A stretch of 24,156 nt of DNA from a virus (IMGVR_UViG_644736359_000007), one strand, 5' to 3'. Shown: positions 4,557 through 22,559, numbered from the stretch's first letter. Notes: generated from the letters alone by a model not told the origin. Made by a program: numbers and translations.

Positions 4557-4651
4557 AAAAAATCACCTAAAATAAATAATTATATTCACTTTTATTCTAA
4601 TACAGAATAGAATATGAAATCGTCAATTTGTACCATTAATTTTCAAATCTT

Positions 4652-4959: not shown

Positions 4960-5146
<187 letters not shown>

Positions 5147-5175
<29 letters not shown>

Positions 5176-6265: not shown

Positions 6266-6304
6266 AAACACTTAACTACAGATACTCCTAACTTTGTATC
6301 TGAC

Positions 6305-6334
6305 GCCCCTCACCCTAAATTAAGGGTGAGGGGC
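6305..6334. repeat. GC-rich inverted repeat (12-bp stem GCCCCTCACCCT / AGGGTGAGGGGC) followed by an A-tract
   Basis: Strong hairpin 40 nt downstream of the GT2 stop; flanked by A-run on the 3' side of the + strand, so not a canonical terminator for either strand. Confidence 0.5.
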
Positions 6335-6476
6335 AAAAAAAATAATTATTTGATGTTATATTTATATGCCATCACATCTTTTAACTCCAGTTGTTACGGG
6401 GAGGACAGTGACTCGTATCAACTAAAGTTTGATCTGTAGATAACACTATTTTAAGCAGATACTCATTAAGGCTTGT

Positions 6477-9335
6477 TTATTCTGAAGTCTCCAACTTCAT
6501 CAAACGACGATTTAAGTCAACAAAGCGTTCCATTAACAAATCCACCTGGCTGACAACAGCACGTAGACACCACCAGAGAAGCTCCTCTTTCCGGAAGCGA
6601 TAACGGCTTCCTGCTTCGGTTGCAGGGCGAACAAGAACCCTTTCCGCCTGTCGGGTAAGCACACGAGTTGTCCCGCTCAACAGCTCCCCTTCATCCGAAT
6701 AAATCGCTGGCTGAACCGGAATATCTTCATACTCTTCCGGTATATCTTCGTACTGTGCCTCCTCCGCTTCCCACGAATCCAGACAAAATGCGCTGTATTT
6801 CCGCCAGTCCAGACCGTGTTTCTCCATCACCGCTATCGCGGCCTGGACTGTCGGCCCGGCGTGCAGACGCGCGTCCTCGCCCTCCTCCTCAATTCTCTGT
6901 AACCAGCGCCACACGCCCGGAAGCCGTGCTATTTCTGCAAATGCCGCGTTTTCGGCTGCCGTCGCATCGCGCGGTGTATCCTTTAACGTCGCATCCGACA
7001 CAACGGTCGGCGAGTTGCAGAGATACACGCTCCGGAACGCTTTGTTGGGCGCACCCAGGTCGCTGGTATTGTTAACCGATGGCCGGAATGCACCGTTAAT
7101 ATCTGTATCCATCTGCATGAATGCAGTGCCGTCACTACGGGCTGCAATTACATAAGCGTCAGCAGAATCGTCATAAATACCCAGATTCCCGGCTGTTGAT
7201 ACCTGGAAAGCTCCCGCCTTCAGCGTGGTGCTGATGGCCATGCGCTTCTGGGTTTCGTCATCCGATTTAATATTCACGCCCTGCAGGTATGCCACATTCC
7301 AGCGATTTGGCGATGACCCCAGATTCATTGCCTTGTCCTGGTCGGGATGAAATGCCGGCGAGACCGGACTCAATAATACAGACCAGGTCTCACTGCCATC
7401 GGTACAATAAAGCCTTGTGCGCCCCGCCGACTGAGTATCGTTCATTGAGTAAAGGTTAATCCCGCCACCGCTCAACAAATCCACGTCAGCGCGTATTTCC
7501 AGACAATCGTGCACGGTGTTCAGTCGGTGTTTCCACTGAACGAAGCGGCCTGTGTATTCTCCGGTTCGGAACGCATCCCCGTACAAACGAAAAACAGCAG
7601 CAGAAGTGTCTGTATCCGGAGCCTCCTTTCTGACCTCAAATAACGGGCGATGCGAGCGCAGATTCTGCTCATAGGCTGCCACCTGGAAGTCTTCATTGGG
7701 TGACAGGGCAATATTTACAGCATTGGGACTCAGAAAAAGGCTAGCATGGCTGTCAGGAAACGCCACGCCGGAGTCCACCAGATAGCCTGTGCCGTCGTAA
7801 GCCTCCACGGAAACCACAGCTTTGCTGCGTTTTGTCGCCACGCCACACGTATAAGACTTCGTGGCATCATATTTCGTTGCAGCCGCCGTTCCATATGCTG
7901 TAGGCGTCCAGTAAGATGGATTCACCGGGGAACGGCCAGAAAAATTTGTTGCACGTGCTGCAAAGTATGCCCCCTCAAAAGAAACCACATCTGCTGTCTG
8001 ACACCAGAAATCCATATCGAGCAGATACAGTTTTCCGTTATGAAGAGCCAGCCCTTCGGCTTCCTGCAAAACGGGATACCCCAGCTCTGCATTCCCCAGC
8101 ATTTTCTGGCGGCCATACCTGGCACGAACGCCATCCACATTGAACTGTCTGACAACTTCGCCCGTTGACAGGTTATATACAACAATGCGGTGAGTCAGAA
8201 ATACGCCTGTATAACCGTAATAAGCAAACAGATAATGACCATCGCTGGCCATCCCCTGAAATGCCTGCGACACCATTGACTGGGTGGACAGATAAATCCG
8301 GTGTTTAAACGTCAGAGAAGCGCGATCGAAAACATAAACTGTGCGGCGGTCATCCCTGTTGTAATGAAGATGGACGGCTTCATTACTTGACTGAACAATC
8401 AACAGGCTTCCGTCTACCGACAATGCCACCGTTATAATTTCATCCCCGGTAAAAAAGTCAGAGGTGAAAATCTCCGTACGGGTGACATCTGTCAGACTGG
8501 TGTCAGCCCCATTCCAGTTGATGATATTCACACCCTTGCCGTCAGCGGTCGGGGTATACAGCATCACGCGACCGTCTTCACATACAGCCCCGATACTCTG
8601 GTGACCAATATCAGCGAAAACGGGAGAAAACGAAATGACCGTCGGGTTTTCGTTTTCTCCGTCAGGGTTAAATGTCGTTTCAACAATCCTTACGCCACCC
8701 GATACAGGCTGATGCAGAAACATTCTGGTTCCCTGCGGCGTATCACAGATACAGAACCCCTGACTCATATTATCCGCACCGTCAAAAATCCCGGCGTAGT
8801 CAATATCGTGGACAACTTTATGCTGAAGAACCACATCATCAATGACAGTACGATGAAAACTGGATATGGCTTTATCGACGTAATCCTGCGTCGCCATCAC
8901 CGTGCTGGCATCAATACTCAGCTCAACAGACGCCACGTTACTGACAATAATAACCATGCGGCAGGTCTGCGCACGCCCGGAGCCTTCAGCCAGTTCAGGC
9001 TTATAGCTTTCTACCATGTTAGCGACCGCAATCAGTGTTCCGGCATCGTCATACAGACCAAGTTCACGCATCCAGAAGCCGCCCACTTCTGGCGGTACAA
9101 CCAGTTCAGCCACGATATAGTTTTTATTCTTGTTATCCACGCTGACTTTATTCAGGGCGTGACGCCAGACCTCATGCACCAGTTTCGTCTGACCAGCATC
9201 CGGCACCGGCAATTTGCCATTACCGTCACCCACGGCCATTGCAGACAGGGTTACTTTTTTCCCGCCGGGGACAGTGGCGGCTGCCAGCTTTGCGGCTCCG
9301 GCAGTAGTGATAACGGTTTTAAATTTCGTGCTCAT
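6477..9335 (-). CDS. H: Tail fibre protein (P2 gpH-like N-terminal anchor domain with a divergent, longer distal region)
   Basis: N-terminal ~150 aa (MSTKFKTVITTAGAAKLAAAT...WRHALNK...GGFWMRELGLYDDAGTLIAVANM...) matches P2 gpH from memory; 952 aa versus 669 aa in P2; positioned directly after gene I as in P2. Confidence 0.8.
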   Translation of the reverse strand: MSTKFKTVITTAGAAKLAAATVPGGKKVTLSAMAVGDGNGKLPVPDAGQTKLVHEVWRHALNKVSVDNKNKNYIVAELVVPPEVGGFWMRELGLYDDAGTLIAVANMVESYKPELAEGSGRAQTCRMVIIVSNVASVELSIDASTVMATQDYVDKAISSFHRTVIDDVVLQHKVVHDIDYAGIFDGADNMSQGFCICDTPQGTRMFLHQPVSGGVRIVETTFNPDGENENPTVISFSPVFADIGHQSIGAVCEDGRVMLYTPTADGKGVNIINWNGADTSLTDVTRTEIFTSDFFTGDEIITVALSVDGSLLIVQSSNEAVHLHYNRDDRRTVYVFDRASLTFKHRIYLSTQSMVSQAFQGMASDGHYLFAYYGYTGVFLTHRIVVYNLSTGEVVRQFNVDGVRARYGRQKMLGNAELGYPVLQEAEGLALHNGKLYLLDMDFWCQTADVVSFEGAYFAARATNFSGRSPVNPSYWTPTAYGTAAATKYDATKSYTCGVATKRSKAVVSVEAYDGTGYLVDSGVAFPDSHASLFLSPNAVNIALSPNEDFQVAAYEQNLRSHRPLFEVRKEAPDTDTSAAVFRLYGDAFRTGEYTGRFVQWKHRLNTVHDCLEIRADVDLLSGGGINLYSMNDTQSAGRTRLYCTDGSETWSVLLSPVSPAFHPDQDKAMNLGSSPNRWNVAYLQGVNIKSDDETQKRMAISTTLKAGAFQVSTAGNLGIYDDSADAYVIAARSDGTAFMQMDTDINGAFRPSVNNTSDLGAPNKAFRSVYLCNSPTVVSDATLKDTPRDATAAENAAFAEIARLPGVWRWLQRIEEEGEDARLHAGPTVQAAIAVMEKHGLDWRKYSAFCLDSWEAEEAQYEDIPEEYEDIPVQPAIYSDEGELLSGTTRVLTRQAERVLVRPATEAGSRYRFRKEELLWWCLRAVVSQVDLLMERFVDLNRRLMKLETSE

Positions 9336-9345
9336 TGTTTCTCAC

Positions 9346-9876
9346 TTATCCGGGATAAACAGTAATAACATCACCATCACAGACCACACCGCCTGTATAC
9401 AGATAGCCGGGAATGTCCTGGATAATGTTCAGACCGATAAGGTGGCGACTTGCGGGTTTGGCATCGGCAATCAGCCGTTCCATTTCCAGATACATCTCCT
9501 CCGTGATGCCGCTTTCCAGTACGCCGATATCAAGGCGGAAGGTTCCGGGCGGGTCGTTTGTCTCCCACCATTCCTTTACGTTAATTAGATAGCCTAGCGG
9601 CTCCACCACACGCCGGATTGCACCTATAGTGCCTTTATGACAGTGGATGAAATACGCATCGCGGATAACGGCGCGTTTTGTCGCTTCCGGCCACTTTTCA
9701 TCCCATCTGTCGACCGAAAACGCCCACGCCAGCCACGGCAGCAGATTTGCCGGGCAGGTGTCCGGGTTCCACAGCTCACGAATACTGACCGGTGTTTTTT
9801 CAATTTCCGCACAGGCTTTTGCGGCGGCGACCTCAAGCGGTGATGAGCCGGTCGGCAGCAGTCGCGAATCACTCAT
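9346..9876 (-). CDS. I: Baseplate assembly protein I
   Basis: 176-aa product with P2 gpI length and sequence character; gene order J-I-H conserved. Confidence 0.85.
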   Translation of the reverse strand: MSDSRLLPTGSSPLEVAAAKACAEIEKTPVSIRELWNPDTCPANLLPWLAWAFSVDRWDEKWPEATKRAVIRDAYFIHCHKGTIGAIRRVVEPLGYLINVKEWWETNDPPGTFRLDIGVLESGITEEMYLEMERLIADAKPASRHLIGLNIIQDIPGYLYTGGVVCDGDVITVYPG

Positions 9877-10777
9877 CCGAGCCTCCGGTCACGACGCGGT
9901 ATTCAGTACAGAAAGACGCCTGCGTGCTGTTAAGCACGATATCGGCCAGCGGTGCAGCCAGTTCGACACGCTGCACGCCTTCCACATGCAAAGCGGCATA
10001 AATGGCAGACAGACGGATGTCGCGCCCCAGCCGGTGCTGTGCCGTGATGTACGCTTCCAGTTTTTTCACGGCAGCAGCGCGGATGGGTTCGCTTTCGGGA
10101 CCAGGGTAAAGGTAAAGCGTGGCGTTTATCTGGTATTCAACAATGGCGGCAGACTGCACGGTCACGCGGTCGGCCACCGGTCTGACGTCCTCGCCATTCA
10201 GGGCGTTACGCACCACCGCCAGCAGGTCTTCGGATGCGACACCGTTATTCTCACGTGACAGCACAGAGATGGTGACGCAGGCCGGAGACGGACTGGTGAC
10301 AGAGATATCCGCGACACGCCCGTCAGCACTGCGACCATGATACTGATAGGCACCCACCGACCCGGCGACGCTTAAACCTTCAAACGCCTGCTGAATACGC
10401 AGACGATAATCGGTATCAGATTCCATCACTGCCGGTGTCGGCGGGATAGTCGAATTATCTGCCGGGGTGATAGTCAGACGCGTGGTGTTGTAATTGGCAC
10501 CAATCACATCAAGGTCATTACCCGCGGCACAGGCCAGCATCACCGCCCGTGCGGCCTCATTCACACGCTGACGCCAGATAAGCTCACGATAAGCATTTTC
10601 CTCCAGCAATTTGACGAGAGGCTCGGATTCCAGCGTCAGGGTACGGGCGACCGCCTCCTGCTGGGCTTCCGGGTAAAGGGAAATCAGTGTCGCCTTGCGT
10701 TCGGCGAGAATGGTTTCAAAGTCCAGCTCCTCGACCACATCCGGTGCGGGTAGCTGGTTCAGGTCGATAATCGGCAT
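9869..10777 (-). CDS. J: Baseplate assembly protein J
   Basis: 302-aa product (P2 gpJ length); 8-nt overlap with I as in P2. Confidence 0.85.
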   Translation of the reverse strand: MPIIDLNQLPAPDVVEELDFETILAERKATLISLYPEAQQEAVARTLTLESEPLVKLLEENAYRELIWRQRVNEAARAVMLACAAGNDLDVIGANYNTTRLTITPADNSTIPPTPAVMESDTDYRLRIQQAFEGLSVAGSVGAYQYHGRSADGRVADISVTSPSPACVTISVLSRENNGVASEDLLAVVRNALNGEDVRPVADRVTVQSAAIVEYQINATLYLYPGPESEPIRAAAVKKLEAYITAQHRLGRDIRLSAIYAALHVEGVQRVELAAPLADIVLNSTQASFCTEYRVVTGGSDE

Positions 10778-10781
10778 GGTT

Positions 10782-11129
10782 TCAACTCACAGGGATGGTT
10801 AACGAAAGTGGCTGGCCGGTGTCGTTGTGCTGGCCGGTTAAGGTGACCGTCATTCGCCCGTCAAAACTGCGCTCAGTGGTGACGGATGACAGGGTGACGC
10901 GGGGTTCCCATTTCAGCACCGCCATGTAACAGGCGACCTTAATCTGCAACTCAAGCGCCGGGGTCTGCGGCTGGTCAATCATTGACGCCAGCAACGAGCC
11001 GTAATCACGACGCATCACCCGCGAGCCGACCGGTGTGCGCAGGATATCGCCGATACTCTGGCTGATATGCTCAAGGTCAGTGACAGTCAGGCCATCACTG
11101 CAATTCATTCCGAGATAACGCGCTGTCAT
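10782..11129 (-). CDS. W: Baseplate protein W (gp25-like)
   Basis: 115-aa product (P2 gpW length); position between V and J. Confidence 0.85.
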   Translation of the reverse strand: MTARYLGMNCSDGLTVTDLEHISQSIGDILRTPVGSRVMRRDYGSLLASMIDQPQTPALELQIKVACYMAVLKWEPRVTLSSVTTERSFDGRMTVTLTGQHNDTGQPLSLTIPVS

Positions 11130-11761
11130 AGAGGGCTCCCGGTTGTGCCGCCGCTGTCGCCGGGGTGTTTATGGGTATGCAGTACCTTACCGTTTGATGA
11201 GAGTTCACCGCCGGTGTGTTCAATGTTGCCGCGCATCGTCCCGCCCTTCTGCACTTCCAGCGTGCCGGTAATCAGCCTGTTGGTGCAAACCACCTCCGGT
11301 GTGTCCAGGGTGACGCGGGTTGATGCTTTCACCATGACCACCGGCACCGTGGCAGTAACAGAATCAGAAGCCGTCACGCTGGCCGTTTTAATTCCGCTTA
11401 CCGTGAGTGCACTGGTTTCGGGTTCATACTCAATCACCGCCCCGTCAGGGAAACGGATATGCAGGGCATCCGCCGACGCAGACGGCGCGGGGTTATCGCC
11501 GGAATAAATCCCCGGCAGAACGAACGCCGTGTCGAGTTCACCGCCCACAGCCAGAATCAGCACCTGTTCCCCCACGGAAGGTGCCCACCATGTGCGCGAA
11601 CGTCCGGCACGATGGGTCAGCCACTGAAGCCAGTCAGTGCACATGCCACCGGTCTGCACACGGCAGCGACCGGCTTTAAGGTTGGTTTCGACGACAAGGC
11701 CGGTACGAATCATGTTGCGCAGTGCGCGCGCGAGTTCCTGAATATTTGCGAGAGTGTTCAT
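11126..11761 (-). CDS. V: Baseplate spike protein V
   Basis: 211-aa product starting MNTLANIQELARALRNMIRTGLVVETNLKAG...; start chosen at ATG 11761 to match P2 gpV; ATGA-type overlap with W. Confidence 0.85.
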   Translation of the reverse strand: MNTLANIQELARALRNMIRTGLVVETNLKAGRCRVQTGGMCTDWLQWLTHRAGRSRTWWAPSVGEQVLILAVGGELDTAFVLPGIYSGDNPAPSASADALHIRFPDGAVIEYEPETSALTVSGIKTASVTASDSVTATVPVVMVKASTRVTLDTPEVVCTNRLITGTLEVQKGGTMRGNIEHTGGELSSNGKVLHTHKHPGDSGGTTGSPL

Positions 11762-11778
11762 GCGTGTGAGATTGCACA

Positions 11779-11827
11779 ATATATAAAAGTTATGCTATCT
11801 GGATTCATTTGTAGAACGACCATACAA
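11779..11827 (-). promoter_or_regulatory. Putative Ogr-dependent late promoter upstream of V (dyad TTGTA-N9-TACAA plus downstream -10-like TATATA)
   Basis: Partial dyad resembling the P2 late-promoter TGT...ACA element about 25 nt upstream of an AT-rich -10-like hexamer. Spacing differs by 1 nt from the consensus I recall. Confidence 0.35.
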
Positions 11828-11844
11828 CATTCGAGGAGAGCGTA

Positions 11845-12630
11845 ATGTTCAGTGATAATGTGACTAATGCGTGGTGGTTTATCTCTTTGTATCTATTTTT
11901 ATTAATAGCATTAACATTTATTACCTTTGGTAAAAGTAATCTTATGAGGTTTATTGCACATCATTTCAATTTTGAGTATTCAGACAGAAAGTTAAAAATG
12001 CTCGACAAAAAATGGCGCGACATTCAACTATTTAAAATAATTAACGGAATCAATGTATCAGGCATCGAAGATGTGAGAATGATACAGCAGGGGCTGATTG
12101 ATGGAAAACTAAAAACATCGTATTTTTTTCTTACTCGCTTCTGGGGTGACATAACAAAACCACCACACATAATTAAAACAATAATTGTAATTCTGTCCAG
12201 CATTATTTATATTCTCTTCGCATGTTATATACACAACAAACAATCCGCTATAGTAAGAGATGCCATAGGCATACCATATAAAAATATGATGTACTATGTT
12301 TATAGTGACAAAGTTCTTTTATCCTTCAACAATAAAACAGTTGAATTCAATAAAACTTATAGCCTTGCCGATTGCAAGAGGCTACGAAACATATTTATAA
12401 AAGACACACTTCCTGAGATCGCCTGCAATAAGCTCTTACAGCTAAACGAGGAGGACTCGGAATGGTTAAGTCAGGAAATTAAAGATAATAACAGCCAAAA
12501 AAAAGCATTATTAATAATATCCCTCATCTATTTCATTTCAGGTCTGGTTATATTCCTGTCATATACAAAATTCCTTTACGCCAATAAGAAGGTTGTAGAA
12601 TACAAAGCATCAAATAAAAATCACTCATAA
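11845..12630 (+). CDS. Hypothetical membrane protein (three predicted transmembrane helices), AT-rich cargo gene
   Basis: ATG with strong GAGGAG RBS; 261 aa with hydrophobic segments AWWFISLYLFLLIALTFITF, IIKTIIVILSSIIYILFACYI and ALLIISLIYFISGLVIFLSY; lysine/asparagine-rich; no homolog recognised. Confidence 0.6.
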   Translation: MFSDNVTNAWWFISLYLFLLIALTFITFGKSNLMRFIAHHFNFEYSDRKLKMLDKKWRDIQLFKIINGINVSGIEDVRMIQQGLIDGKLKTSYFFLTRFWGDITKPPHIIKTIIVILSSIIYILFACYIHNKQSAIVRDAIGIPYKNMMYYVYSDKVLLSFNNKTVEFNKTYSLADCKRLRNIFIKDTLPEIACNKLLQLNEEDSEWLSQEIKDNNSQKKALLIISLIYFISGLVIFLSYTKFLYANKKVVEYKASNKNHS

Positions 12631-12635
12631 GCCTC

Positions 12636-12672
12636 TAAACATTGAGCGACCAGCATGGCCGCTCAATGTTTA
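12636..12672. repeat. Perfect 13-bp inverted repeat (TAAACATTGAGCG ... CGCTCAATGTTTA) with 11-nt loop between convergent coding regions
   Basis: Seen directly in sequence; lies between the membrane-protein stop (12630) and the stop of the minus-strand fragment (12692); possible bidirectional terminator or rearrangement scar. Confidence 0.5.
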
Positions 12673-12694
12673 ATTGCGCATCAGCCTCTGCCTG

Positions 12695-12955
12695 GATAAA
12701 ACTAACGCTCAAGGTGAGCCAGGATAATCTCTTCAATCATCTGCACATCCTCACCGGTAAAGCCGAGCAGAGGACGCGCCGGATAATCAATTTTCTTACC
12801 GTCTTTCCGGGTTTCTTCCGACAGACCGAACTGATGCACACTGGCGATTTTCGGCGACTTTCCCAGCAGGATTTCAGCCGCTTTGTGCTGGATTTTCTGG
12901 TGTTCGGTAATGCGTTTCTGGAAAAGCGTTACAGCACCACCGGTAAGGTCATCAG
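12695..12955 (-). pseudogene. Orphan 3' fragment (87 codons) of an unidentified gene on the minus strand
   Basis: Minus-strand frame translates to GFQSDDLTGGAVTLFQKRITEHQKIQHKAAEILLGKSPKIASVHQFGLSEETRKDGKKIDYPARPLLGFTGEDVQMIEEIILAHLER-stop using preferred E. coli codons (CTG, CCG, GGT, CGT), whereas the overlapping + strand track ORF uses rare codons (AGG, CGG, ATA, CGA); no start codon; bounded upstream by an in-frame stop at the junction with the Q fragment. Confidence 0.5.
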
Positions 12956-12958
12956 ACT

Positions 12959-13616
12959 GGAAACCTCACCGGCAAAATATACCCGCCGTGGCGTGGAGGA
13001 GGATGTTTACTGGTGGGTGCCGTCCTTCAACGAACCGACAGCCTTCGCGCCCGGTTCCGTGTTTCACCTGCTGGAGCCCGATATTAATCAGGAGCTGTAC
13101 GGCCTGCCGGAATATCTCAGCGCCCTTAACTCTGCCTGGCTGAATGAGTCGGCCACGCTGTTCCGCCGCAAGTATTACGAAAACGGCGCACATGCCGGAT
13201 ACATCATGTACGTCACTGATGCCGTGCAGGATCGCAACGATATCGAAATGCTTCGCGAAAACATGGTGAAGTCGAAAGGCCGCAACAACTTTAAAAACCT
13301 GTTTCTCTATGCCCCACAGGGAAAAGCCGACGGCATTAAAATTATCCCGCTCAGTGAAGTGGCGACGAAGGACGATTTTTTTAATATCAAAAAAGCCAGT
13401 GCCGCAGACCTGCTGGACGCGCACCGCATCCCCTTTCAGTTGATGGGCGGCAAGCCGGAGAACGTCGGGTCGCTGGGTGATATTGAGAAAGTGGCAAAGG
13501 TCTTTGTCCGCAATGAGCTTATCCCGTTACAGGACAGGATCCGTGAGATAAACGGCTGGCTCGGTCAGGAGGTCATCCGCTTTAAAAACTACTCACTGGA
13601 CACTGACAACGGCTGA
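12959..13616 (+). pseudogene. Q: 3' fragment of portal (capsid vertex) protein gene Q
   Basis: C-terminal ~219 codons (…GLPEYLSALNSAWLNESATLFRRKYYENGAHAGYIMYV…RFKNYSLDTDNG) with good codon usage, ending next to cos as P2 Q does; the 5' ~125 codons and upstream gene P are absent. The 324-aa track ORF begins at a TTG and its first ~105 codons are non-coding read-through. Confidence 0.65.
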
Positions 13617-13784: not shown

Positions 13785-13803
13785 GTGCTTTCCCCGCCTC
13801 GCC
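13785..13803. other. cos site (19-nt P2-type cohesive end sequence)
   Basis: GTGCTTTCCCCGCCTCGCC is the reverse complement of GGCGAGGCGGGGAAAGCAC, the P2/186 cohesive end as I recall it; located between Q and the old/tin position as in P2. Confidence 0.7.
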
Positions 13804-13931
13804 CGCCCGCTTCATGGGGCGGTTTTAATGCGGTTGAATTTTATCGAAAGTCACGTCACACAAAACCTTCCCTTCACTAAATAGACTCATTATCCACATG
13901 CAATCTAATTCAAAAAAATGCATGTATAGTA

Positions 13932-15902
13932 TTAAAGGTCATCAATTAAACCTAAAGGCAAACCATCCTCACCAACCGAGCTATAATGAGCGATAATATT
14001 CGAAAGTTCACCAGTAGAAAACGAATTAGGCAAATCATTATCAACTAATATAATCTGGCACGGAACATTTTTTCTTTCTGCTTTTTGAACTGTATTCAAT
14101 AGTTGCTCATAAATATTTTGATACTTCATCGGGTCTGACATCCCCTCAAGGTCATCCTCGACTGCAAGAGTTTCTTTTGAGTATTTTTCCTTGGTCTGTT
14201 TCCCTAAATATTTACCAACCGTATCAAATATCAAAAGTAAAGGATGGTTAACATTATGGTCTATTGCATAATCAAGAATAGACAAAAGATACCCAATAGA
14301 AGAAATAGTTCTCAAACCTCCGGACGTTATTTTAAAATATTCCTTTCCTCTTATAACAGGGGTGTAATATCTTTCAGAGATTTTTATCCCCGTTCTGTTT
14401 TTGATATTAATACCCTTCAAATACTGACTAAATCTATCACCTAAACCTTGTAAAATGCCTTCCATACTAGGTGCGTTTTTCTTTAACGCATCCAAGCGTT
14501 CAGTTAATGTTTCAATATCTTTTATCAGTACCTGATGCTTTTCAAGCAGTTCCTCTTGCTGGTTTCTAACCTTCAAATCTTTTACTAACTGCTCCCTAAC
14601 CTTCTCGTTTTTTGATATCTCTTTAATATAAAAATCTCTCTGAGTCAAGAATGGTGTAATCATTGACTGGCTTTCTTCGTCAATTAACTCTCTCAACTCG
14701 TCAAGTTGTTCATCTAATTCTTTTTTATAACCAGATTCTTTTTTTAATTTAAATGACATTTCTGAGATCATGTCATTAATATTTCGTCTACGTCGACTAA
14801 GTGAATTCAACTCTTCATTAAGATCTTTTTCTGATGAAATTTCAAATGGAAAATCGGAATCATCTATTTTAATGTGGCTATCACAGATCGGACAGGAAAA
14901 TACTTCCTTATCCAATACACCAATGCGAGAATTTGCTGTTTTAATCGCTTTGAGTTTTTCAATATCATTATCATAGTCATTTTTTAACCGCGAATATTTA
15001 TCAATCTTATCCTCAAGCGTGCTAATATTTAATATGCACTCCTTGTATTTAAGCGAAATAAAATTGTGGGCATCTTTCAATTCTGTATACTGCATGGAAT
15101 CCGCTTTCATATTTTTATCGAGAGCAGACAAACCTGCAACAAGTTCTTCTAAAATAAGATCTATCCTATTAATCTCATCATCAATTGATTCAATTGTTTC
15201 ATAGTCTGTATCGCGAAGAAATTCAGATATTATCTGATACTTCTTATTTAGTTCCGTTACTAAACTACTTTTTGCAGATATTTCACCTTGGAGTCTGGCG
15301 ATGCTTTCATCCAACACATTGAACATGTATTTAAAAACTTCTTTCGTAAATGCGTAACGGGACCAATCCTCCAATCGTAAGAATGATTTACTACCAATAT
15401 CATCCTGACTTACATAAACAAATTTATATATATTTCTAAAGCTTAACCTGCGCATCTGTGAATGTGCTTTAGAAGGAGACACCTTAATTTCAATTTTTGG
15501 AAAATTAAGACTATCAAGTAAAAACTCCGAAAAAACGCCATCAACATTTGATAAGGGGCTATAATTAGGAGCGTATTTTTTCGGAAAGTGTTTATGTAAA
15601 TCATCAAACTTACAACGATAAACTTCTATTGATTTTTTATGATCATAGATATCTCTTACGATTGTGAATACAGTATCATTGATCACTACTTCAAGAGCAG
15701 CATAGTTTACTGATGTTTTTATTTCATCTGCTAAATCTATAGAACTAGCACCTAAAAGATAATTAATAAACTCCAGAATACTTGACTTACCTGTGTCAGA
15801 GTCTCCGTAGATAACATTGAGACCTTTATAAAAAGTAGTGACGTAGTTTTTACGAACGCCAACAAGAATCAAACTATTGATATTGAGATATGATTTCATC
15901 AT
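13932..15902 (-). CDS. Rad50/SbcC/SMC-like ABC ATPase with central coiled coil and CPxC zinc-hook motif (candidate LmuB-like)
   Basis: 656 aa; Walker A GDSDTGKSS (about 15781-15807); long heptad-like charged region; CPICD near the middle (about 14878-14892); ABC signature ITSGG (about 14311-14322); Walker B HPLLLIFD (about 14221-14250). AAGGAG RBS; start ATG 15902 or 15899; ATGA overlap with the upstream gene stop. Confidence 0.7.
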   Translation of the reverse strand: MMKSYLNINSLILVGVRKNYVTTFYKGLNVIYGDSDTGKSSILEFINYLLGASSIDLADEIKTSVNYAALEVVINDTVFTIVRDIYDHKKSIEVYRCKFDDLHKHFPKKYAPNYSPLSNVDGVFSEFLLDSLNFPKIEIKVSPSKAHSQMRRLSFRNIYKFVYVSQDDIGSKSFLRLEDWSRYAFTKEVFKYMFNVLDESIARLQGEISAKSSLVTELNKKYQIISEFLRDTDYETIESIDDEINRIDLILEELVAGLSALDKNMKADSMQYTELKDAHNFISLKYKECILNISTLEDKIDKYSRLKNDYDNDIEKLKAIKTANSRIGVLDKEVFSCPICDSHIKIDDSDFPFEISSEKDLNEELNSLSRRRRNINDMISEMSFKLKKESGYKKELDEQLDELRELIDEESQSMITPFLTQRDFYIKEISKNEKVREQLVKDLKVRNQQEELLEKHQVLIKDIETLTERLDALKKNAPSMEGILQGLGDRFSQYLKGINIKNRTGIKISERYYTPVIRGKEYFKITSGGLRTISSIGYLLSILDYAIDHNVNHPLLLIFDTVGKYLGKQTKEKYSKETLAVEDDLEGMSDPMKYQNIYEQLLNTVQKAERKNVPCQIILVDNDLPNSFSTGELSNIIAHYSSVGEDGLPLGLIDDL

Positions 15903-16264
15903 TTCTCCTTGAAGACTTTGTTTATAACAGAGTTTAACTTAGAGGTAGGCAATGCTTGTAGCGGTAACAATGCTTCGGCTAGTCGTTTTATTTCTTTAAA
16001 ATATCCATCAGTCAATGAGCTAGCAAATTCCTTACCTTTTTCAGATAAAAATAATTTAACACTCTCATTATTTTTTTTCTCAGCTGAGAGCAATCCCCGC
16101 AATGACATAATTTTTATAAGATATTTCACTTTGGAATTGTCGAATAAGATATCTACATTTGATGAAAAACTCTTTATTGTATAAGTTAACTGGGACTCGA
16201 CACAAGCAGGCTTTTTCCCCGAAACTGTAAGAGCACAATCAATTTTTGATGGATTTTTTATCAC
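15899..16264 (-). CDS. Small hypothetical protein encoded between the hydrolase and the ATPase (candidate LmuC-like accessory)
   Basis: 121-codon ORF (GTG start at 16264; alternative ATG at 16108 would give 70 aa); stop overlaps the ATPase start (ATGA), indicating translational coupling; AT-rich. Confidence 0.5.
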   Translation of the reverse strand: MIKNPSKIDCALTVSGKKPACVESQLTYTIKSFSSNVDILFDNSKVKYLIKIMSLRGLLSAEKKNNESVKLFLSEKGKEFASSLTDGYFKEIKRLAEALLPLQALPTSKLNSVINKVFKEK

Positions 16265-16399
16265 AGATACATAAAAATTTGTATTTTATTAATATCTAAT
16301 GACAACACTCCTTTTTTACTATGAGATAATATAGATATAGCAATGGCAAGCATAGCAAAATTCAAACTATACTCTTCATCAAGAGGTATATACGGCAAG

Positions 16400-17623
16400 T
16401 TATTTTTCTTCATGATTACCTCGCCGTAATTGCTCCAAAGTTTCTACGCTGGTTTCAGATGACCAGACAATATCCCTGTCATTTTTGTTAGCCAGTTGAT
16501 GCAACATTCCTTTCTTATGTATCGTTTCCAAACTTTTTATAAGAGAATCTAACGACGACTTATCCTCCTGGGTTATTCGTCTATGAACAGCAGCAATAAA
16601 TTTATCTGGGGAAATTGAATTTGCAATGTATTGCTCATACTCTTCCTGGTAAATCTCCCTTATTTTAGAATACAAATGACCAAGTTGTTTTCTATCGTAA
16701 TCACTCGTAAAAATATTTCTCGCAAGCTCAGCATTATAATAATATTCCTTTGCATGCAGAGCGATATCCTGATGTATATCTGCGACAATCATTTTTAAGA
16801 CGAAATACTCATTATCATATTGTTTATCATCAGAAAAACGCTCAACGCAAATCTTCTTGGGTGCTTCTAAATTTATCTGCTGAATAAATTGCTTTACCGC
16901 AACAAACACTGTAGACGAGCTATTTTCGGGCTTGCAAATTGAGCTATGCCCTTCATTAACTGCAATTGAGTTATGTCGTTCACTATCCATCGGTAATGCG
17001 CTTTTTTTATCGACTATAGTGTCATGAGATCCATAAACATATCTAGTGATAGGAAGTTTTTTGCTACAATTTATCCAGCGCCTATTCAATGTATCAGTCG
17101 CTTCACTTAACAATCCAAGATCTACTAACTGAGCATTTGAAGATACCATTGAAGTTATATTCGCTAATTTAGCACCAAAGTGAGGGACTGCTAACGAAAT
17201 GAATCCAATTATATTAGATTGTTCCTCATGCTCAACTTTTTTTAGAATTAGATTTTTTGATATTAACCCCCCCATACTATGGGCGATTATTATAATTCGA
17301 GAGTAATCACTTAGTGTTACTCTAATCTCAGTATACAATAACTCAGCTATTTCATCAGTTGGTAAATTTCTCTCTAACTTATTTTTCTTAAAGAAAATAC
17401 GAGCCAAGAATCCTGACGTTTTAGCATACGTTTGTGTGAATTTAGTAAAATAATTGAAACATGCAATATCAAATACGTTGCTAATATCTTCATCTTCTGC
17501 TAATAGTTTTGGAAATGAAATTTCTTTATTAAAGTTCCATGTTTCCAAACCACCATTTAATCCATGTACAAATAGTATCAGGCTATCTTTTTTCTCGTGG
17601 CTTATCCATTCAACCATGCTCAT
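16400..17623 (-). CDS. Alpha/beta-hydrolase (lipase/esterase-like) domain protein with a C-terminal helical domain (candidate LmuA-like effector)
   Basis: 407 aa; N-terminal LILFVHGLNGG and nucleophile-elbow IIIAHSMGGL (GXSXG-type, about 17267-17284), then candidate Asp (GSHDTIVD) and His (NEGHSSIC) in Ser-Asp-His order; C-terminal ~160 aa charged/helical; sigma70-like promoter (TTGTTT-N16-TATACA) just upstream. Confidence 0.7.
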   Translation of the reverse strand: MSMVEWISHEKKDSLILFVHGLNGGLETWNFNKEISFPKLLAEDEDISNVFDIACFNYFTKFTQTYAKTSGFLARIFFKKNKLERNLPTDEIAELLYTEIRVTLSDYSRIIIIAHSMGGLISKNLILKKVEHEEQSNIIGFISLAVPHFGAKLANITSMVSSNAQLVDLGLLSEATDTLNRRWINCSKKLPITRYVYGSHDTIVDKKSALPMDSERHNSIAVNEGHSSICKPENSSSTVFVAVKQFIQQINLEAPKKICVERFSDDKQYDNEYFVLKMIVADIHQDIALHAKEYYYNAELARNIFTSDYDRKQLGHLYSKIREIYQEEYEQYIANSISPDKFIAAVHRRITQEDKSSLDSLIKSLETIHKKGMLHQLANKNDRDIVWSSETSVETLEQLRRGNHEEK

Positions 17624-17711
17624 ATGCTTTTCTGCCGTGTATAAAAATTAAACCATAACAAACAATTCCTCAACAATAACATATTGTTACCCCGTTCAAC
17701 CGTTTTTTCAA

Positions 17712-19994
17712 CTACCACTCACGCTGTCTGTCAAAAAAGTCGATATCGGTATCAAATTTAAAACGCTTATGCCCAAAATCCAAAACAGCTCCGCGAGCGA
17801 GAGCTTCAAGCTCCCAATAACTAGCCTGAATGTCACTTTGTGCAAGAAGAACCTTAATTTTCGGGATAGTCTTTCTCTCCTGCCTTGTCAACCGGGCGGA
17901 TGGGGCAGGAAAGTAGCTTCGACCATTGAAAGGAGTAAAGCTCTGCTGTGAACGATTACTGCATTTCAGTTCATTACTCAATAAGTCTCTAAGTACCTTC
18001 ATAATGCCTGGCTCGGTCCAACTTAGAATCCCTTCATCTATAAAATTTAACACCGCTGCAGCATGCTCAGTCGGTGTGGGAGCCGATAACGAAGTATCAC
18101 CACCGGTGAGCTTTCCACAGTTATTGACAGGACTCCGAGGCGCGGCGATGCCGCTTTTTAAAGTCAAAGGCTCCACGACCGGAACTTTCGGCACAATGCG
18201 CCAGTCCGTCGTTCTGGTGATATGAATATGACGCGCGCCGAGATGCGGCGCGTAAATGCCGACCACTCTCTCGACTTCTTCCTCGTACTCGTTAACTTCA
18301 TCCGACGGGCTACGGGCGACTCTGACAGTCTGGCAATCGCGCGGAACATTTGCCCCACCCTGCGCACTGATATACAACGCAAAATCGCCACTGTCTGCGG
18401 CAGCGCGTGCAGCCTCGACGCGTTCGTCAAACTCATCAGCAATGCTGACGCCGCGAGGCAATTTGCGTAGTTCACGGTAAGCCCCCATTGTCGGCAGACC
18501 AACCGTTTTAAATTGCGGGATGCGCCACGTTGACGCCCATGCAGTAACAGCCGCGGCAGTATCTTTCAGAGGTCTGCCGGTATCGTTATCGAGCTGACCA
18601 TCCAGTGCATAGCCGTCGATGTTTTTTGAGATGTATTTCGCGATATACCCCGCAGCACCGCCCCGATTAAGGTGTTTTGCCTGAAAACGGTTTCGCGCGG
18701 CTCCTCTTTCGTCGCCATCCTCTTTGAGCGCATAGCGACGCATGATTTCGATAATCTGGTTACGCTGGCGCGGATTACAAAAAAGCATCATATGCCAGTG
18801 CGGCGTTCCGTCGTGATGTGGCTCGACGACACGCAAACCGTAGACCTGTAAATCATTATCCTTGAATGCCGTGCGCATCAGGCTCCAGATACGGCAGAGA
18901 TAACGCTGCGCATCCTTTGGATTAAATGCCTCATCGTTCCAGCCGTGATTTAGCTGGACGGTTTTACTTTCGCCTTTTCCAACCTGACGTGTCGGGTGAT
19001 ACTTTGACGGCGCGGTCAGCGTGATAAACATCCCCACATCACCCTCTGCTGCGGCGTAACGCTCAATACCGGCAATGGTGTTCATCAGCTCCATCCGGCG
19101 AATTTCAGGATTAGAAATACTGCCCATCACCTTACTGATAAGGTCGATGCGCTCGCCGGTTTCCCTGTTTTCGAGATCACACGATTTAAGAAATTCCAGA
19201 TTTGCCTGGCGGCGTGCACGCACATCACGAATGGCATGTTTACTGGCATAAGGAGAACGGTCTTTATTGACCTCCCCGACAGCAATCAGTAACGCCTCAT
19301 GCCAGCGCATACGCTGGCCTTTGAGCTGATGAGTCCACCACTCATCGTTAAACAGACGGGCAATGGCAGAATATGCCTGCCTCGTGGTCATCTGTCCTTT
19401 ACGGTATTTTTTCCAGTAAAGCGGGGAAATATTGAAAGCACGTGCAGCGCCAGCAACATGACCATAGAGGTGAGCCTGCGCCTCATCCGTAAACAGCGAT
19501 TCTTTTTCGCCATGTGCATCCACCCAGGCATCGCTGAGTTCCTCATACATCATGAAAAGCTGCGATGAGATACGGGCGGCAAACTTTTTCAGCTCCTTGT
19601 CATTCATTCCCGGCAGGCGCGCATAGTGGTCACGCTCTGCCAGAAACAGCAACGACGCGTCGGTGTTCATTTCATGGCGCTGATTCACACGCTCAATGCA
19701 CGGCCATAAACGACGCTGAAAAGTGGATGTGAGGAAATAAAACCCGTGCACCGGGCTTTTATTGCGCCGGATGTAGTCATAGTGTGAAGTAAACAGCGAG
19801 CGCAAAAAGTAAGGCAGGCGGTTAATCGTGGATAAAACACCTTGCACCTGACGCATCTCGTCACGTGTAAGGGGTCTTTCGCGCCCGACGGCCTCGCGTG
19901 GCGCGTTCCATGCATAAGCACCGGTAAACGTCTTACCGGTGCCTGCGGCAAATGCTGACGGAGGGACAAAACGCCCGGAGGCTTTAACGGCCAT
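17712..19994 (-). CDS. A: Replication initiation protein A (rolling-circle nickase)
   Basis: 761-aa product starting MAVKASGRFVPPSAFAAGTGK... matching P2 gpA over most of its length from memory; start set at ATG 19994 rather than the longer track ORF; C-terminal ~120 aa diverge from P2. Confidence 0.9.
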   Translation of the reverse strand: MAVKASGRFVPPSAFAAGTGKTFTGAYAWNAPREAVGRERPLTRDEMRQVQGVLSTINRLPYFLRSLFTSHYDYIRRNKSPVHGFYFLTSTFQRRLWPCIERVNQRHEMNTDASLLFLAERDHYARLPGMNDKELKKFAARISSQLFMMYEELSDAWVDAHGEKESLFTDEAQAHLYGHVAGAARAFNISPLYWKKYRKGQMTTRQAYSAIARLFNDEWWTHQLKGQRMRWHEALLIAVGEVNKDRSPYASKHAIRDVRARRQANLEFLKSCDLENRETGERIDLISKVMGSISNPEIRRMELMNTIAGIERYAAAEGDVGMFITLTAPSKYHPTRQVGKGESKTVQLNHGWNDEAFNPKDAQRYLCRIWSLMRTAFKDNDLQVYGLRVVEPHHDGTPHWHMMLFCNPRQRNQIIEIMRRYALKEDGDERGAARNRFQAKHLNRGGAAGYIAKYISKNIDGYALDGQLDNDTGRPLKDTAAAVTAWASTWRIPQFKTVGLPTMGAYRELRKLPRGVSIADEFDERVEAARAAADSGDFALYISAQGGANVPRDCQTVRVARSPSDEVNEYEEEVERVVGIYAPHLGARHIHITRTTDWRIVPKVPVVEPLTLKSGIAAPRSPVNNCGKLTGGDTSLSAPTPTEHAAAVLNFIDEGILSWTEPGIMKVLRDLLSNELKCSNRSQQSFTPFNGRSYFPAPSARLTRQERKTIPKIKVLLAQSDIQASYWELEALARGAVLDFGHKRFKFDTDIDFFDRQREW

Positions 19995-20259
19995 ATGAGC
20001 CAAAAGCCTCTGAACAACGCTTGCTGAGTTGCTCAACCTGCGCGTTTAAATCAGCAAAAGACTTTGCGCTTCCGGTAAGAATATCGTGATGCATCAGGCC
20101 GGAAACGAGCTGGCTTAATTTCGGGTAATAACCAACCACCGCCAGCCATTCCTGACCGGCGTTTTTACCGCTTTCCGCTCTCTTTTTCTCGTGGAGAATA
20201 AACTGAAAGCTGTCACTGGTAACGACATAACGTTCGCCAATTTCAATACGAATACTCAT
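19984..20259 (-). CDS. P2 early-region small protein (orf83-like)
   Basis: 91-aa ORF with GGAGAA RBS, immediately upstream of A and overlapping its start, as in the P2 B-A interval. Confidence 0.6.
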   Translation of the reverse strand: MSIRIEIGERYVVTSDSFQFILHEKKRAESGKNAGQEWLAVVGYYPKLSQLVSGLMHHDILTGSAKSFADLNAQVEQLSKRCSEAFGSYGR

Positions 20260-20480
20260 GCCGTTCTCCGGTAATGTTTGTTTTTTGCTTCAAAGACTGA
20301 CTGACAGGAAACACAACGCGTGGCTGACGGGTAAGCCGCACGACGGGCAGCAGGTATTGGCGCGTTACACTCTTCGCAAACCAGCGCAGAAGCACCGCAA
20401 TGTTTTACCCTTGCCGCGTTAATCTGGCGCTCCAGTAATTCAGCCTGTTGTTCCTGAATAAAATCTACGTTGTCCGGCAT
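20256..20480 (-). CDS. DksA/TraR-family C4 zinc-finger protein
   Basis: 74 aa with CEEC...CVSC motif pair; AAGGAG RBS; 4-nt overlap with the downstream ORF. Confidence 0.65.
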   Translation of the reverse strand: MPDNVDFIQEQQAELLERQINAARVKHCGASALVCEECNAPIPAARRAAYPSATRCVSCQSVFEAKNKHYRRTA

Positions 20481-20482
20481 TA

Positions 20483-20782
20483 TCAGCTCCTTTTATCGTT
20501 AAGTTTCCTGGATACATCAGCGCAATAACTGGCAAGTTCTGTCGTTAATTTTGTCAGTTCATCCACTGAGGAAATTTGCTTGTGGAATACAGCGCGTTTA
20601 ACAAGTAAATTGACCACATCAGACAGGAGGTTTAATTCATTCTGATAAATCGCGATAACAGATTCAGTTATGTCGCGTTTTTCTTTATCAAGGCAAAGTT
20701 GAATAAGAGACAAATCGCCATTTTTCATAACGGCGATTTTTAAGGCGTTATTCAGTAATACAACTGAATGAGAACAGGACAT
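20483..20782 (-). CDS. P2 early-region small protein (hypothetical)
   Basis: 99-aa ORF starting at ATG 20782, which overlaps the upstream stop (ATGA). Confidence 0.5.
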   Translation of the reverse strand: MSCSHSVVLLNNALKIAVMKNGDLSLIQLCLDKEKRDITESVIAIYQNELNLLSDVVNLLVKRAVFHKQISSVDELTKLTTELASYCADVSRKLNDKRS

Positions 20783-21006
20783 CAAAGCACCTCCCCGCGA
20801 GACAATCCGATATTGTGAAATTTTTCCGACTCCTGACTGAGCAGCTCGACTATCTCCACGCGGGATAACTCCGCCTTTGTGATATGGCGAATCATGGCGT
20901 CAAGATGAGAAGAAAAGCGTGTCGCTGCGTCGGCATGTGCTTCGGCTCTGGCCTGTTGCAGCAGTAATGCGTATTTACCGCACTTGTTTTCAGAAACTGT
21001 ATGCAT
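20782..21006 (-). CDS. P2 early-region small protein (hypothetical)
   Basis: 74-aa ORF with GGAGAA RBS. Confidence 0.5.
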
Positions 21007-21069
21007 GACTTTCTCCAGGCAAAAAGAAGCCCCGCACGATTAAGTGCATTAAAAACTCTGGTTAATTAT

Positions 21070-21570
21070 TTAATGCAGATATTGCTCTGGTTTTACCGAC
21101 GTCAGAATTGTCGGTGCATACTCAAACAGGCTGAATAATTCACGTAATGCACGGAATAAAGCATCACGCCAGTAACATGATTCTTCATTAATTCGCCAGT
21201 ATGGCTGGTTGAATTCTTTTTCAGTCAATCCGGCATGCATAAATAAAGTACGACGCTGACTGACTGTTAAAAAACTAATATATGCATACTCACTTGCGCC
21301 AACCTGACGGCGTTTTGAGAATGCCCCACGCAATTCATCAATTGCACAAACCAGCCGTTCACGTTCGACGTCGTTCATTTCTTCAAAACGCATCGTTGCG
21401 TGACGCTGTTTTAACTGCGCATGGAAGCAAACCGTTAGCCGTTCGCGTTCCATCATCTGATTATAATAATCGCATGTCTCCTGCCAGCGAGGGACGGCCA
21501 GATGCTTACCAATTATCCGGCGCATAGCTGCTGGCTGTTTTTCAACGAGATTGAGCGTCATCACTGTCAT
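21070..21570 (-). CDS. B: Replication protein B (helicase-loader-like)
   Basis: 166-aa product (P2 gpB length), in the expected position between cox and A. Confidence 0.8.
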   Translation of the reverse strand: MTVMTLNLVEKQPAAMRRIIGKHLAVPRWQETCDYYNQMMERERLTVCFHAQLKQRHATMRFEEMNDVERERLVCAIDELRGAFSKRRQVGASEYAYISFLTVSQRRTLFMHAGLTEKEFNQPYWRINEESCYWRDALFRALRELFSLFEYAPTILTSVKPEQYLH

Positions 21571-21737
21571 TTCCAGACCCTCCGGCTTTTCAGAAAGGTC
21601 AGAGCCTTTTTTAACGGACTCTGTTTTTTGGTGCGGATAATGATTCCCTTACGCCCCTTACCGTGGGTGATGGTGAAGTCAATCGCCCTAGGGCTTTCGT
21701 TACGCAATAACTGAGCAATACAACGAGGCTCATTCAT
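21567..21737 (-). CDS. Small early protein (orf78-like)
   Basis: 56-codon ORF from ATG 21737 with strong AAGGAGAA RBS; stop overlaps the B start (ATGA); the track's GTG start at 21761 would overlap cox. Confidence 0.5.
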   Translation of the reverse strand: MNEPRCIAQLLRNESPRAIDFTITHGKGRKGIIIRTKKQSPLKKALTFLKSRRVWK

Positions 21738-21747
21738 ACGGTTCTCC

Positions 21748-22023
21748 TTAACGTGGTTCACCGAGACCTAACCACATCAACCAGCCGTCACGAATCTCTT
21801 TAGGACGGCTTTCATAAGCCAGTTTTAGTCCGTTATTCCATGCCGGAAGGTATACCCAATATTCACCAGCACGCCCCGATACTGACTGAGGGTCAGTAAT
21901 CTCAATAACTGGTAATTTCCCTTTCTCAATCATGCCCCTTACAGCTCTTGGAGTTTTACCAATGAGTTTTGCAAACTCCTGATAAGGCACGGCATCAGTC
22001 ACGCTTACAAGCTGTCTATTCAT
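21748..22023 (-). CDS. cox: Cox (excisionase / repressor of Pc)
   Basis: 91-aa product with C-terminus ...SGRAGEYWVYLPAWNNGLKLAYESRPKEIRDGWLMWLGLGEPR matching P2 Cox from memory. Confidence 0.85.
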   Translation of the reverse strand: MNRQLVSVTDAVPYQEFAKLIGKTPRAVRGMIEKGKLPVIEITDPQSVSGRAGEYWVYLPAWNNGLKLAYESRPKEIRDGWLMWLGLGEPR

Positions 22024-22144
22024 CTGCTACGATTCTCCCTTAGTGCTTCTAATGGCTCCTAATGGCTAATTATTGCCTAAAAGGATAACTCCAGAAGCAC
22101 AACATTTCACACTATCAGCAAGAAATTACGCAATCGGAGTAATT
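22024..22144. promoter_or_regulatory. Immunity switch region (Pe/Pc promoters and operator) with tandem direct repeat CTAATGGCT-C-CTAATGGCT (22049-22067)
   Basis: Intergenic region between divergently oriented cox and C; two perfect 9-bp direct repeats with 10-bp periodicity, consistent with P2-type repressor operators, which are direct repeats. Confidence 0.5.
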
Positions 22145-22444
22145 ATGTCAATAGACGTTTCGGAGAAGTTGAAGCTAATCCGTGAATCTGAAAGGTTAAA
22201 CCGTAAAGAATTCAGTGAATTAACTGGTGTAGCCTACAGCTCACTTTCGAGCTATGAGAGCCGGTCAAAAAACGCTGGAGTTGAAGCCATAATGAAGGTC
22301 TTACAACATCCTAGATTTACTAAATATACTTTGTGGTTCATGACTGATCAGGTAGCTCCAGAAGCCGGGCAAATTGCGCCCGCTCTCGCACACTTTGGGC
22401 AAAACGAAACAACGTCGCCCCACTCCGGTCAAAAGACTGGTTAA
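22145..22444 (+). CDS. C: Immunity repressor C
   Basis: 99-aa product from ATG 22145; C-terminal half (...FTKYTLWFMTDQVAPEAGQIAPALAHFGQNETTSPHSGQKTG) matches P2 C from memory; N-terminal DNA-binding region divergent, suggesting a distinct immunity specificity. Confidence 0.85.
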   Translation: MSIDVSEKLKLIRESERLNRKEFSELTGVAYSSLSSYESRSKNAGVEAIMKVLQHPRFTKYTLWFMTDQVAPEAGQIAPALAHFGQNETTSPHSGQKTG

Positions 22445-22482
22445 CAATTTATCGTGAATATATTCATCACAAGTGCCTACTA

Positions 22483-22505
22483 TTGGTGGCTAAATTTCAG
22501 CCACC
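22483..22505 (+). promoter_or_regulatory. Hairpin (TGGTGGCT-N7-AGCCACCA) between C and int
   Basis: 8-bp inverted repeat in the 115-bp C-int spacer, followed by an A-run; possible attenuator or processing site. Confidence 0.3.
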
Positions 22506-22559
22506 ACGAAAAAAGCGATTAGTAGTAGCAAAAAAAAGTACCACTCGGAGGGTTTTCTG

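Follow-up and report, generated by a model that had tools for sequence, protein, structure and literature searches.

According to published work, the effector LmuA of the Lamassu (ABC-3C) anti-phage systems is sequestered in an LmuA1-LmuB2-LmuC1 complex that recognises DNA ends and origins of replication; LmuA then becomes active by oligomerising. Enrichment of LmuB at the lambda origin has been found at an early stage of infection, and Rad50-type complexes have been proposed as the evolutionary origin of these systems. One of them, Lamassu Ec-Lipase of Escherichia coli, protects against lambda-vir, and this protection requires the Walker A lysine of LmuB and the catalytic histidine of LmuA, as it is impaired by the substitutions LmuB K42A and LmuA H215A; the system becomes toxic when over-induced, a toxicity relieved only in the LmuA mutant (Haudiquet et al., PNAS 2025, PMC12663957). 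The stretch of DNA analysed here, 24,156 nucleotides (nt) in length (IMGVR_UViG_644736359_000007, hereafter the window), contains at positions 13932 to 17623 a cassette that is very likely a short-type Lamassu operon of the lipase-effector subtype, carried as cargo in the defence slot of a P2-like prophage and probably non-functional in its host strain, E. coli B REL606. It resembles Ec-Lipase in being a short E. coli Lamassu with a lipase-type LmuA, an LmuC and an LmuB with a CxxC zinc hook, and differs from it in that lmuC is frameshifted in the REL606 copy. The locus is thus of a known kind: Lamassu systems with lipase or hydrolase effectors are already represented in PADLOC and DefenseFinder, the E. 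coli lipase type has been tested experimentally, and the hotspot has been published.

The whole window corresponds to approximately 2,098,775-2,122,930 of the REL606 chromosome (NC_012967.1), where a P2-like prophage is inserted between yegQ and yegR, and the 3.87-kb cassette region is 100% identical to that genome. The cassette genes, which RefSeq already labels as ABC-three-component proteins, are co-directional, tightly packed and arranged in the order lmuA-lmuC-lmuB on the minus strand:

16400-17623, minus strand: lmuA, 407 amino acids (aa), with an alpha/beta-hydrolase domain at residues ~10-250 and the ABC-3C C-terminal domain CTD8 at residues 265-389
16261-16413, minus strand: 5' fragment of lmuC, 50 aa, ending at a premature TGA and matching positions 2-47 of the PADLOC LmuC profile PDLC03869 (4.7e-13)
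16262-16263: 2-bp insertion, CA on the plus strand, a duplication of TG on the gene strand that changes CTGATA to CTGTGATA
15899-16264, minus strand: 3' fragment of lmuC, 121 aa, with a GTG start, matching positions 48-166 of PDLC03869 (3.1e-34) and holding most of the middle-component domain MC4
13932-15902, minus strand: lmuB, 656 aa, a Rad50/SMC-like ABC ATPase, the putative sensor

All three components were recognised by the PADLOC profiles: LmuA by PDLC03851 (1.3e-108, residues 3-406 covered), LmuB by PDLC03862 (1.2e-233, residues 2-656 covered) and LmuC, in its two fragments, by successive parts of the 168-position model PDLC03869. An NCBIfam search gave no match above the cut-offs for any of the three cassette proteins. 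Lamassu loci were defined by an LmuA effector joined to one of the domains CTD1-12, an intact LmuC of type MC1-8 encoded between lmuA and lmuB, a Rad50/SMC-like LmuB, and the order A-C-B. LmuA, LmuB and the operon order conform to this definition, and an intact LmuC is lacking; judged from its sequence, the split lmuC is that of a mutated family member and not a different architecture. The original prediction, made from the window alone, had proposed a LmuA-LmuC-LmuB layout and a profile search as its check, and both the PADLOC and Pfam matches and the conserved order in homologous loci support that call. Its limits for the two large open reading frames (ORFs) proved exact, as did its description of a co-directional, coupled and AT-rich block: lmuA and the ORF after it share 14 nt, the stop codon of lmuC and the start codon of lmuB lie within an overlap of 4 nt (ATGATGA), and the G+C content of the cassette is 32-36%, compared with 50-58% in the flanking prophage backbone. 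The middle gene had been described as encoding one small protein of a three-gene cassette and has to be corrected, as it consists of two ORFs in different frames.

A diverged 'short' Lamassu sub-family has been delineated by CTD6-12, MC2-8 and a small LmuB (Li et al.), and the combination of CTD8, MC4 and a 656-aa LmuB therefore places the cassette in this sub-family. The short lipase subtype, clade H, is marked by a lipase-type effector together with an LmuB of ~600-700 aa that has a CxxC hook and a Walker B motif reading hhhhD[Q/S/T/E] (PMC12663957). The REL606 cassette matches it in these features, with its 656-aa LmuB, the sequence LLLIFD-T, a single C337-P-x-C340 and a lipase-like effector.

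The C-terminal part of LmuA, which had been foreseen as a helical domain, matched the Pfam family ABC-3C CTD8 (9.2e-36 at residues 265-389), and its N-terminal half, at residues ~10-210, matched DUF676 (2.8e-09), PGAP1, Abhydrolase_1 and LCAT. A second PADLOC LmuA model, PDLC03852, matched the C-terminal domain only, which fits a modular plan in which a variable effector is joined to a conserved C-terminal domain. A homology search returned 372 relatives of LmuA, almost all with the architecture DUF676 plus CTD8. Across 23 homologues (43-91% identity), H20-G21, the elbow H115-S116-M-G-G-L, D201 and H226 are invariant; the last two are the Asp and His that had been proposed as candidates downstream of the nucleophile elbow. 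H20-G21 is expected to be the oxyanion motif, and Ser116, Asp201 and His226 are expected to form the catalytic triad in canonical order. In the AlphaFold2 (AF2) model of LmuA the hydrolase core was predicted with a per-residue confidence score (pLDDT) of 85-95, and a Foldseek search with this model gave 707 PDB matches at E<=0.001, the best 50 of the 707 being alpha/beta hydrolases without exception. The nucleophile elbow, the acid, the histidine and the HG motif of a serine alpha/beta hydrolase are thus all found on a predicted alpha/beta-hydrolase fold. Single-sequence PDB searches with LmuA gave no match; with a profile of the family, the putative lipase 7x2p was found at 3e-06.

The affinities to DUF676, LCAT and PGAP1 make a membrane phospholipid the most economical guess for the target of LmuA, and we consider it slightly more probable than all other kinds of target taken together. 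A lipid-hydrolase effector is also present in the CBASS systems with the patatin-like phospholipase CapV, which act by abortive infection and in which the effector is thought to destroy the membrane. The two differ in that CapV responds to a cyclic-nucleotide signal and has a patatin fold, whereas a Lamassu lipase would respond to release from an SMC-like complex and has a DUF676 alpha/beta-hydrolase fold.

In LmuB, matched weakly by the Pfam families SMC_N and AAA_23, we located a Walker A motif at G33-S40 (with K39), Q166 of the Q-loop, a C337-P-I-C340 hook at the midpoint of the coiled coil, the ABC signature S527-G-G and H639 of the H-loop. The motifs that had been listed from the first reading (AHSMGG in LmuA; GDSDTGKS, CPIC, TSGG and LLLIFD in LmuB) were therefore all found, and their key residues are invariant in homologues; in five LmuB sequences down to 40% identity, the invariant positions are G33, G38, K39, S40, Q166, C337-P-x-C340, S527-G-G, L556-L557, D560-T561 and H639. 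The Walker B motif ends in D560-T561, not in the catalytic D-E of Rad50/SMC proteins, and this D-T is invariant across the subfamily. Short Lamassu LmuB proteins carry Q, S, T or E at the corresponding position, and slow ATP hydrolysis has been suggested for them (PMC12663957; Li et al.). Single-sequence PDB searches with LmuB gave no match; with the LmuB family profile, the best match was a 660-aa chain, 9hqu_A ('DUF3732 domain-containing protein'), at 6.6e-05, followed by Rad50 head domains. DUF3732 is, as we take it, the Pfam name attached to LmuB.

Both the likeness and the distance to better-known complexes are evident in these proteins. The cassette follows the plan of DdmABC (Lamassu Vc-Cap4) of Vibrio cholerae and of the Salmonella LmuACB complex: in each, the effector ends in a domain for sequestration and oligomerisation, the middle component is small, and LmuB is Rad50-like, its Walker B departing from the canonical form. 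In the Vibrio and Salmonella systems, however, the effector is the DNA-degrading nuclease Cap4 and not a serine alpha/beta hydrolase, the C-terminal and middle-component types are other than the CTD8 and MC4 of the REL606 cassette, and the Vibrio LmuB is devoid of the zinc hook that the REL606 protein keeps. As in Rad50-Mre11 and SbcCD, the ABC head of LmuB is interrupted by an antiparallel coiled coil whose apex bears a CxxC hook, and Rad50 heads are the next-best PDB matches of the protein. LmuB differs from these complexes by a much shorter coiled coil, by D-T in place of D-E in Walker B, by the absence of a Mre11/SbcD partner and by its setting in mobile AT-rich cargo.

The third component is disrupted in REL606. 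An alignment with the B-type genome CP029371 and with an O157 strain identified the 2-bp insertion at 16262-16263, which shifts the reading frame of lmuC and leads to a TGA after codon 50. In CP029371 and the O157 strain lmuC is a continuous gene of 513 nt encoding 170 aa, and the 50-aa fragment of REL606 is identical to residues 1-50 of the intact LmuC from other B strains. The 3' fragment matched positions 22-132 of the 133 positions of Pfam MC4 (6e-19). As the MC4 domain occupies residues 29-160 of the intact protein, the break after residue 50 falls inside the domain. In the Lamassu systems tested, deletion of lmuC abolishes defence (Millman et al., bioRxiv 10.1101/2022.05.11.491447). The Vibrio structure has LmuC at the centre of the complex, with its N-terminal residues at the LmuA-LmuC interface, and several interface mutants are dead; a triple mutant in the DNA-binding residues of LmuC also loses protection (Li et al.). 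Because lmuC is cut inside MC4 and because deletion or mutation of lmuC is known to cause loss of defence, the REL606 copy of the cassette is quite probably non-functional. Programmed frameshifting was considered and rejected, as the 95 other copies are without the frameshift and no slippery site precedes the stop.

The cassette occupies the interval from the cos site to gene A, the replication gene, in a decayed prophage of the P2 type, with the following features at its edges:

13785-13803, minus strand: P2 cos cohesive-end sequence GGCGAGGCGGGGAAAGCAC, an exact 19/19 match, one edge of the cargo slot
17712-19994, minus strand: P2 gene A, replication endonuclease (RefSeq annotation of NC_012967.1 and ORF), the other edge of the slot
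12858-13616, plus strand: remnant of the portal gene Q, N-terminus missing (RefSeq annotation, pseudogene), beyond cos from the cassette
17683-17711, minus strand: candidate sigma-70-like promoter, TTGAAA-17 nt-AACAAT (consensus scan, 9/12 matches)

The sequence used as query for cos is presumably that of the P2 cohesive end; 0/100 shuffled sequences gave a match to it, as against the 19/19 at 13785-13803. The cassette thus lies between gene A and cos/portal Q of a P2-like element, as the original prediction had placed it, in a slot where P2 itself carries old and tin. These serve the same role of prophage-borne exclusion cargo; they are, however, unrelated single-protein systems, and neither is present in the REL606 prophage. 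The cos-proximal gpA-gpQ interval of P2-like phages is a documented defence hotspot (Rousset et al., PMC9122126) and is also treated as such in bioRxiv 10.64898/2026.02.27.708500. The promoter candidate lies in the gap that separates the end of gene A from the beginning of lmuA; it is a weak call, since shuffled sequence gave more such sites in the scan than the region itself.

The mode of action of an intact system of this type can be proposed from the published Lamassu structures and from its relatives. Two LmuB with folded coiled coils and one LmuC would grip the C-terminal domain of a single LmuA close to the zinc hook, and this sequestration would keep LmuA monomeric and inactive. LmuB and LmuC would then bind to ends in the invader's DNA or to its aberrant replication intermediates, upon which the released LmuA would self-associate via its C-terminal domain and its effector domain would be activated. 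The Ser116-Asp201-His226 hydrolase might attack an essential ester substrate of the cell, most likely a membrane phospholipid, so that the cell would die before phage release, as in abortive infection.

Some observations weigh against the assignment of the cassette as a lipase-type Lamassu that is inactive in REL606. The structure prediction proposed along with the original prediction was confident for the hydrolase core of LmuA and poor for its C-terminal domain, which was modelled with low confidence (pLDDT 30-66). The fold matches of LmuA are generic alpha/beta hydrolases and include esterases, thioesterases and monoacylglycerol lipases, and its links by sequence profile to LCAT, PLA2-XV and PGAP1 are weak (E 0.04-0.7). 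The residue numbering, K39 and H226 here as against K42 and H215 in Ec-Lipase, sets the two systems apart as relatives and not the same protein. Finally, some re-initiation at the GTGA might yield a two-piece LmuC.

Among 5426 complete E. coli genomes, 96 contain the cassette, always on the chromosome. Twelve copies are at least 99% identical to it, of which 11 belong to laboratory B or B-derived strains, and the other 84, many of them from O157:H7, are ~97% identical. Among the matches listed, the cassette adjoins a replication endonuclease gene in 30 out of 30. When 50,697 phage records were searched with the cassette by megablast, no match was obtained, so that no sequenced free phage in this set carries the REL606-type allele. 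In Serratia marcescens, a 63%-identical LmuA is encoded in the same gpA-portal slot of an apparently complete P2-like prophage, and more distant homologues in Pseudomonas aeruginosa and Methylomonas adjoin TraG and type IV secretion system (T4SS) genes on DNA resembling conjugative elements. These three loci have the same A-C-B order; in each, one intact MC4 gene (169-190 aa) precedes that of an ATPase of 656-668 aa, and the order LmuA-LmuC-LmuB is kept in homologous loci down to 40-44% protein identity. The cassette is mobile, sporadically distributed cargo and does not have a housekeeping function.

The homologues that adjoin TraG and T4SS genes bear on a second view of the function, namely that the main role of the cassette is to restrict plasmids or other replicons, or to compete with rival elements on behalf of the prophage, and not to defend against lytic phages. 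DdmABC is the Lamassu system that was first found via plasmid restriction, and the sensor recognises DNA structures and not sequences, which would suit such a role. On the other hand, the related Ec-Lipase and several other Lamassu systems protect against phages, and the anti-phage role of the P2 hotspot has been validated. We regard a main role against replicons other than lytic phages as improbable, and the two roles are compatible.

A two-piece LmuC with residual function is the main alternative to inactivation of the REL606 cassette. The 50-aa and 121-aa pieces might be produced by termination and re-initiation and reassemble, or the 121-aa piece might suffice by itself. The GTG start of the 3' fragment does overlap the premature stop (GTGA), this fragment retains positions 22-132 of MC4, and the ORFs of lmuA and lmuB are intact with all catalytic residues. 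However, no purine-rich ribosome-binding sequence was seen upstream of the GTG, the break lies within MC4, and the 50-aa piece that would be lost or detached is a conserved part of the family profile. Moreover, lmuC is a single continuous gene in all of the 95 other E. coli copies and in the distant homologues, and Lamassu systems tolerate changes in LmuC poorly, whether point mutants or full deletion. A cassette that still works in REL606 is therefore unlikely in our view, and inactivation of the REL606 copy remains the favoured reading.

The frameshift itself is a true property of the strain. In the complete genomes the insertion is found in a single one of the 96 cassette-bearing strains, REL606, where 166 bases align with 164 in the other 95, and these 95 copies all have an intact lmuC that encodes 170 aa. 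That it is found only in the reference genome, with a second difference 55 bp away, would be compatible with an error in the REL606 reference sequence and a truly intact gene. This possibility was rejected, and we give it hardly any weight, since independent assemblies of many sequencing runs reproduce the insertion. The same split into 50 aa and 121 aa (CTGTGATAAAAAATCC) is present in assemblies of the separate runs SRR5943703, SRR6172700, SRR6172874 and SRR6172796, the first three of which show at most one base of difference from the window; in the index of the assembly collection, 1226 blocks list the 121-aa product; and the insertion is also found in two further NCBI assemblies, GCA_002979635.1 and GCA_002872175.1.

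The second difference is a synonymous G-to-A change at 16318 (AGC to AGT on the gene strand), specific for REL606 among the complete genomes. The REL606 pedigree reportedly includes nitrosoguanidine treatments, which are expected to give G:C-to-A:T transitions. The assemblies GCA_002979635.1 and GCA_002872175.1 carry the insertion together with the ancestral G at 16318, plus a difference at 15528, which indicates that the two changes are separate and that the insertion is the older one. In BL21(DE3) (NC_012971.2, 2064588-2066597) yegQ directly adjoins yegR, and the whole P2-like prophage with its Lamassu cassette is consequently absent. The B strains thus form a series at this locus: B and ATCC 11303 have an intact cassette, REL606 has the frameshifted one, and BL21(DE3) has none. 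The assembly of run SRR6172796, of REL606 type (4 samples), has an extra G in a run of seven G at ~17268-17274, within the codons of AHSMGG, which frameshifts lmuA, and two T-to-C transitions at 17345 and 14548; these changes suggest that the cassette has decayed further in a mutator derivative.

It is conceivable, though doubtful, that the frameshift is more than neutral decay: it may have been selected in the laboratory lineage, an intact lipase-type Lamassu being costly or auto-toxic, or it may leave an unsequestered LmuA-LmuB pair with altered activity. In either case, the strain that founded the long-term evolution experiment would not match ancestral E. coli B in its susceptibility to phages or plasmids.

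The view that LmuB is a housekeeping Rad50/SbcC-like repair ATPase next to an unrelated hydrolase, to which the Rad50 heads found with its profile and the weak NCBIfam matches to SMC and Rad50 might point, was rejected and has next to no probability, as these NCBIfam scores are far below the family cut-offs (Rad50, 22.6 bits versus 1000; SMC, 25 bits versus 729), the Walker B motif ends in D-T, no Mre11/SbcD nuclease partner gene is present, and the Lamassu profiles of PADLOC and Pfam match, the former end to end, in AT-rich mobile cargo that occurs sporadically, in 96/5426 E. coli genomes.

The lineage-specific lmuC frameshift in REL606 is the only feature of the locus for which no earlier report was found, a search of the available papers having returned no mention of REL606 together with Lamassu, and it is a practical caveat and not a discovery. 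Cloning of 13850-17720 from REL606, which had been proposed for a challenge with phages, would probably give a dead system owing to the mutant lmuC, and an intact allele is therefore to be sought in another B strain or in O157:H7. Differences between B strains at this locus may also have to be considered in comparisons of phage phenotypes among B derivatives. If the cassette is indeed intact, inactivated and absent in the respective strains, these would provide a natural series for finding the substrate of the lipase-type Lamassu effector.

The remainder of the prophage (1635-13616 and 17712-23573) is heavily decayed. Only remnants of the genes S (12702-12869), FII (2475-2714) and D (1935-2426) were found, most head genes are gone, and terminase, capsid and lysis genes are all lacking. 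The prophage keeps int, C, cox and A, for integration, immunity and replication, as well as the exact cos. Two other AT-rich segments were observed. The first, an island of 32-38% G+C at 4151-6265, lies between the sheath gene FI (2727-3917) and the tail-fibre gene H (6477-9335), presumably at the Z/fun cargo site of P2. It contains a family-2 glycosyltransferase gene at 5153-6265 (Pfam PF00535, 1.6e-28) and two small hypothetical ORFs, at 4151-4375 (minus strand) and 4960-5175 (plus strand); none of its ORFs had a PADLOC match. This island may be a surface-modification moron, acting on the O-antigen or masking a receptor. The second is an ORF at 11845-12630, of ~34% G+C and on the opposite strand, between the baseplate gene V and the S remnant, in what we take to be the orf30 site of P2. 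Its product of 261 aa is hydrophobic and had neither a Pfam match above the cut-off nor a PADLOC match, and this cargo gene could encode another exclusion function.

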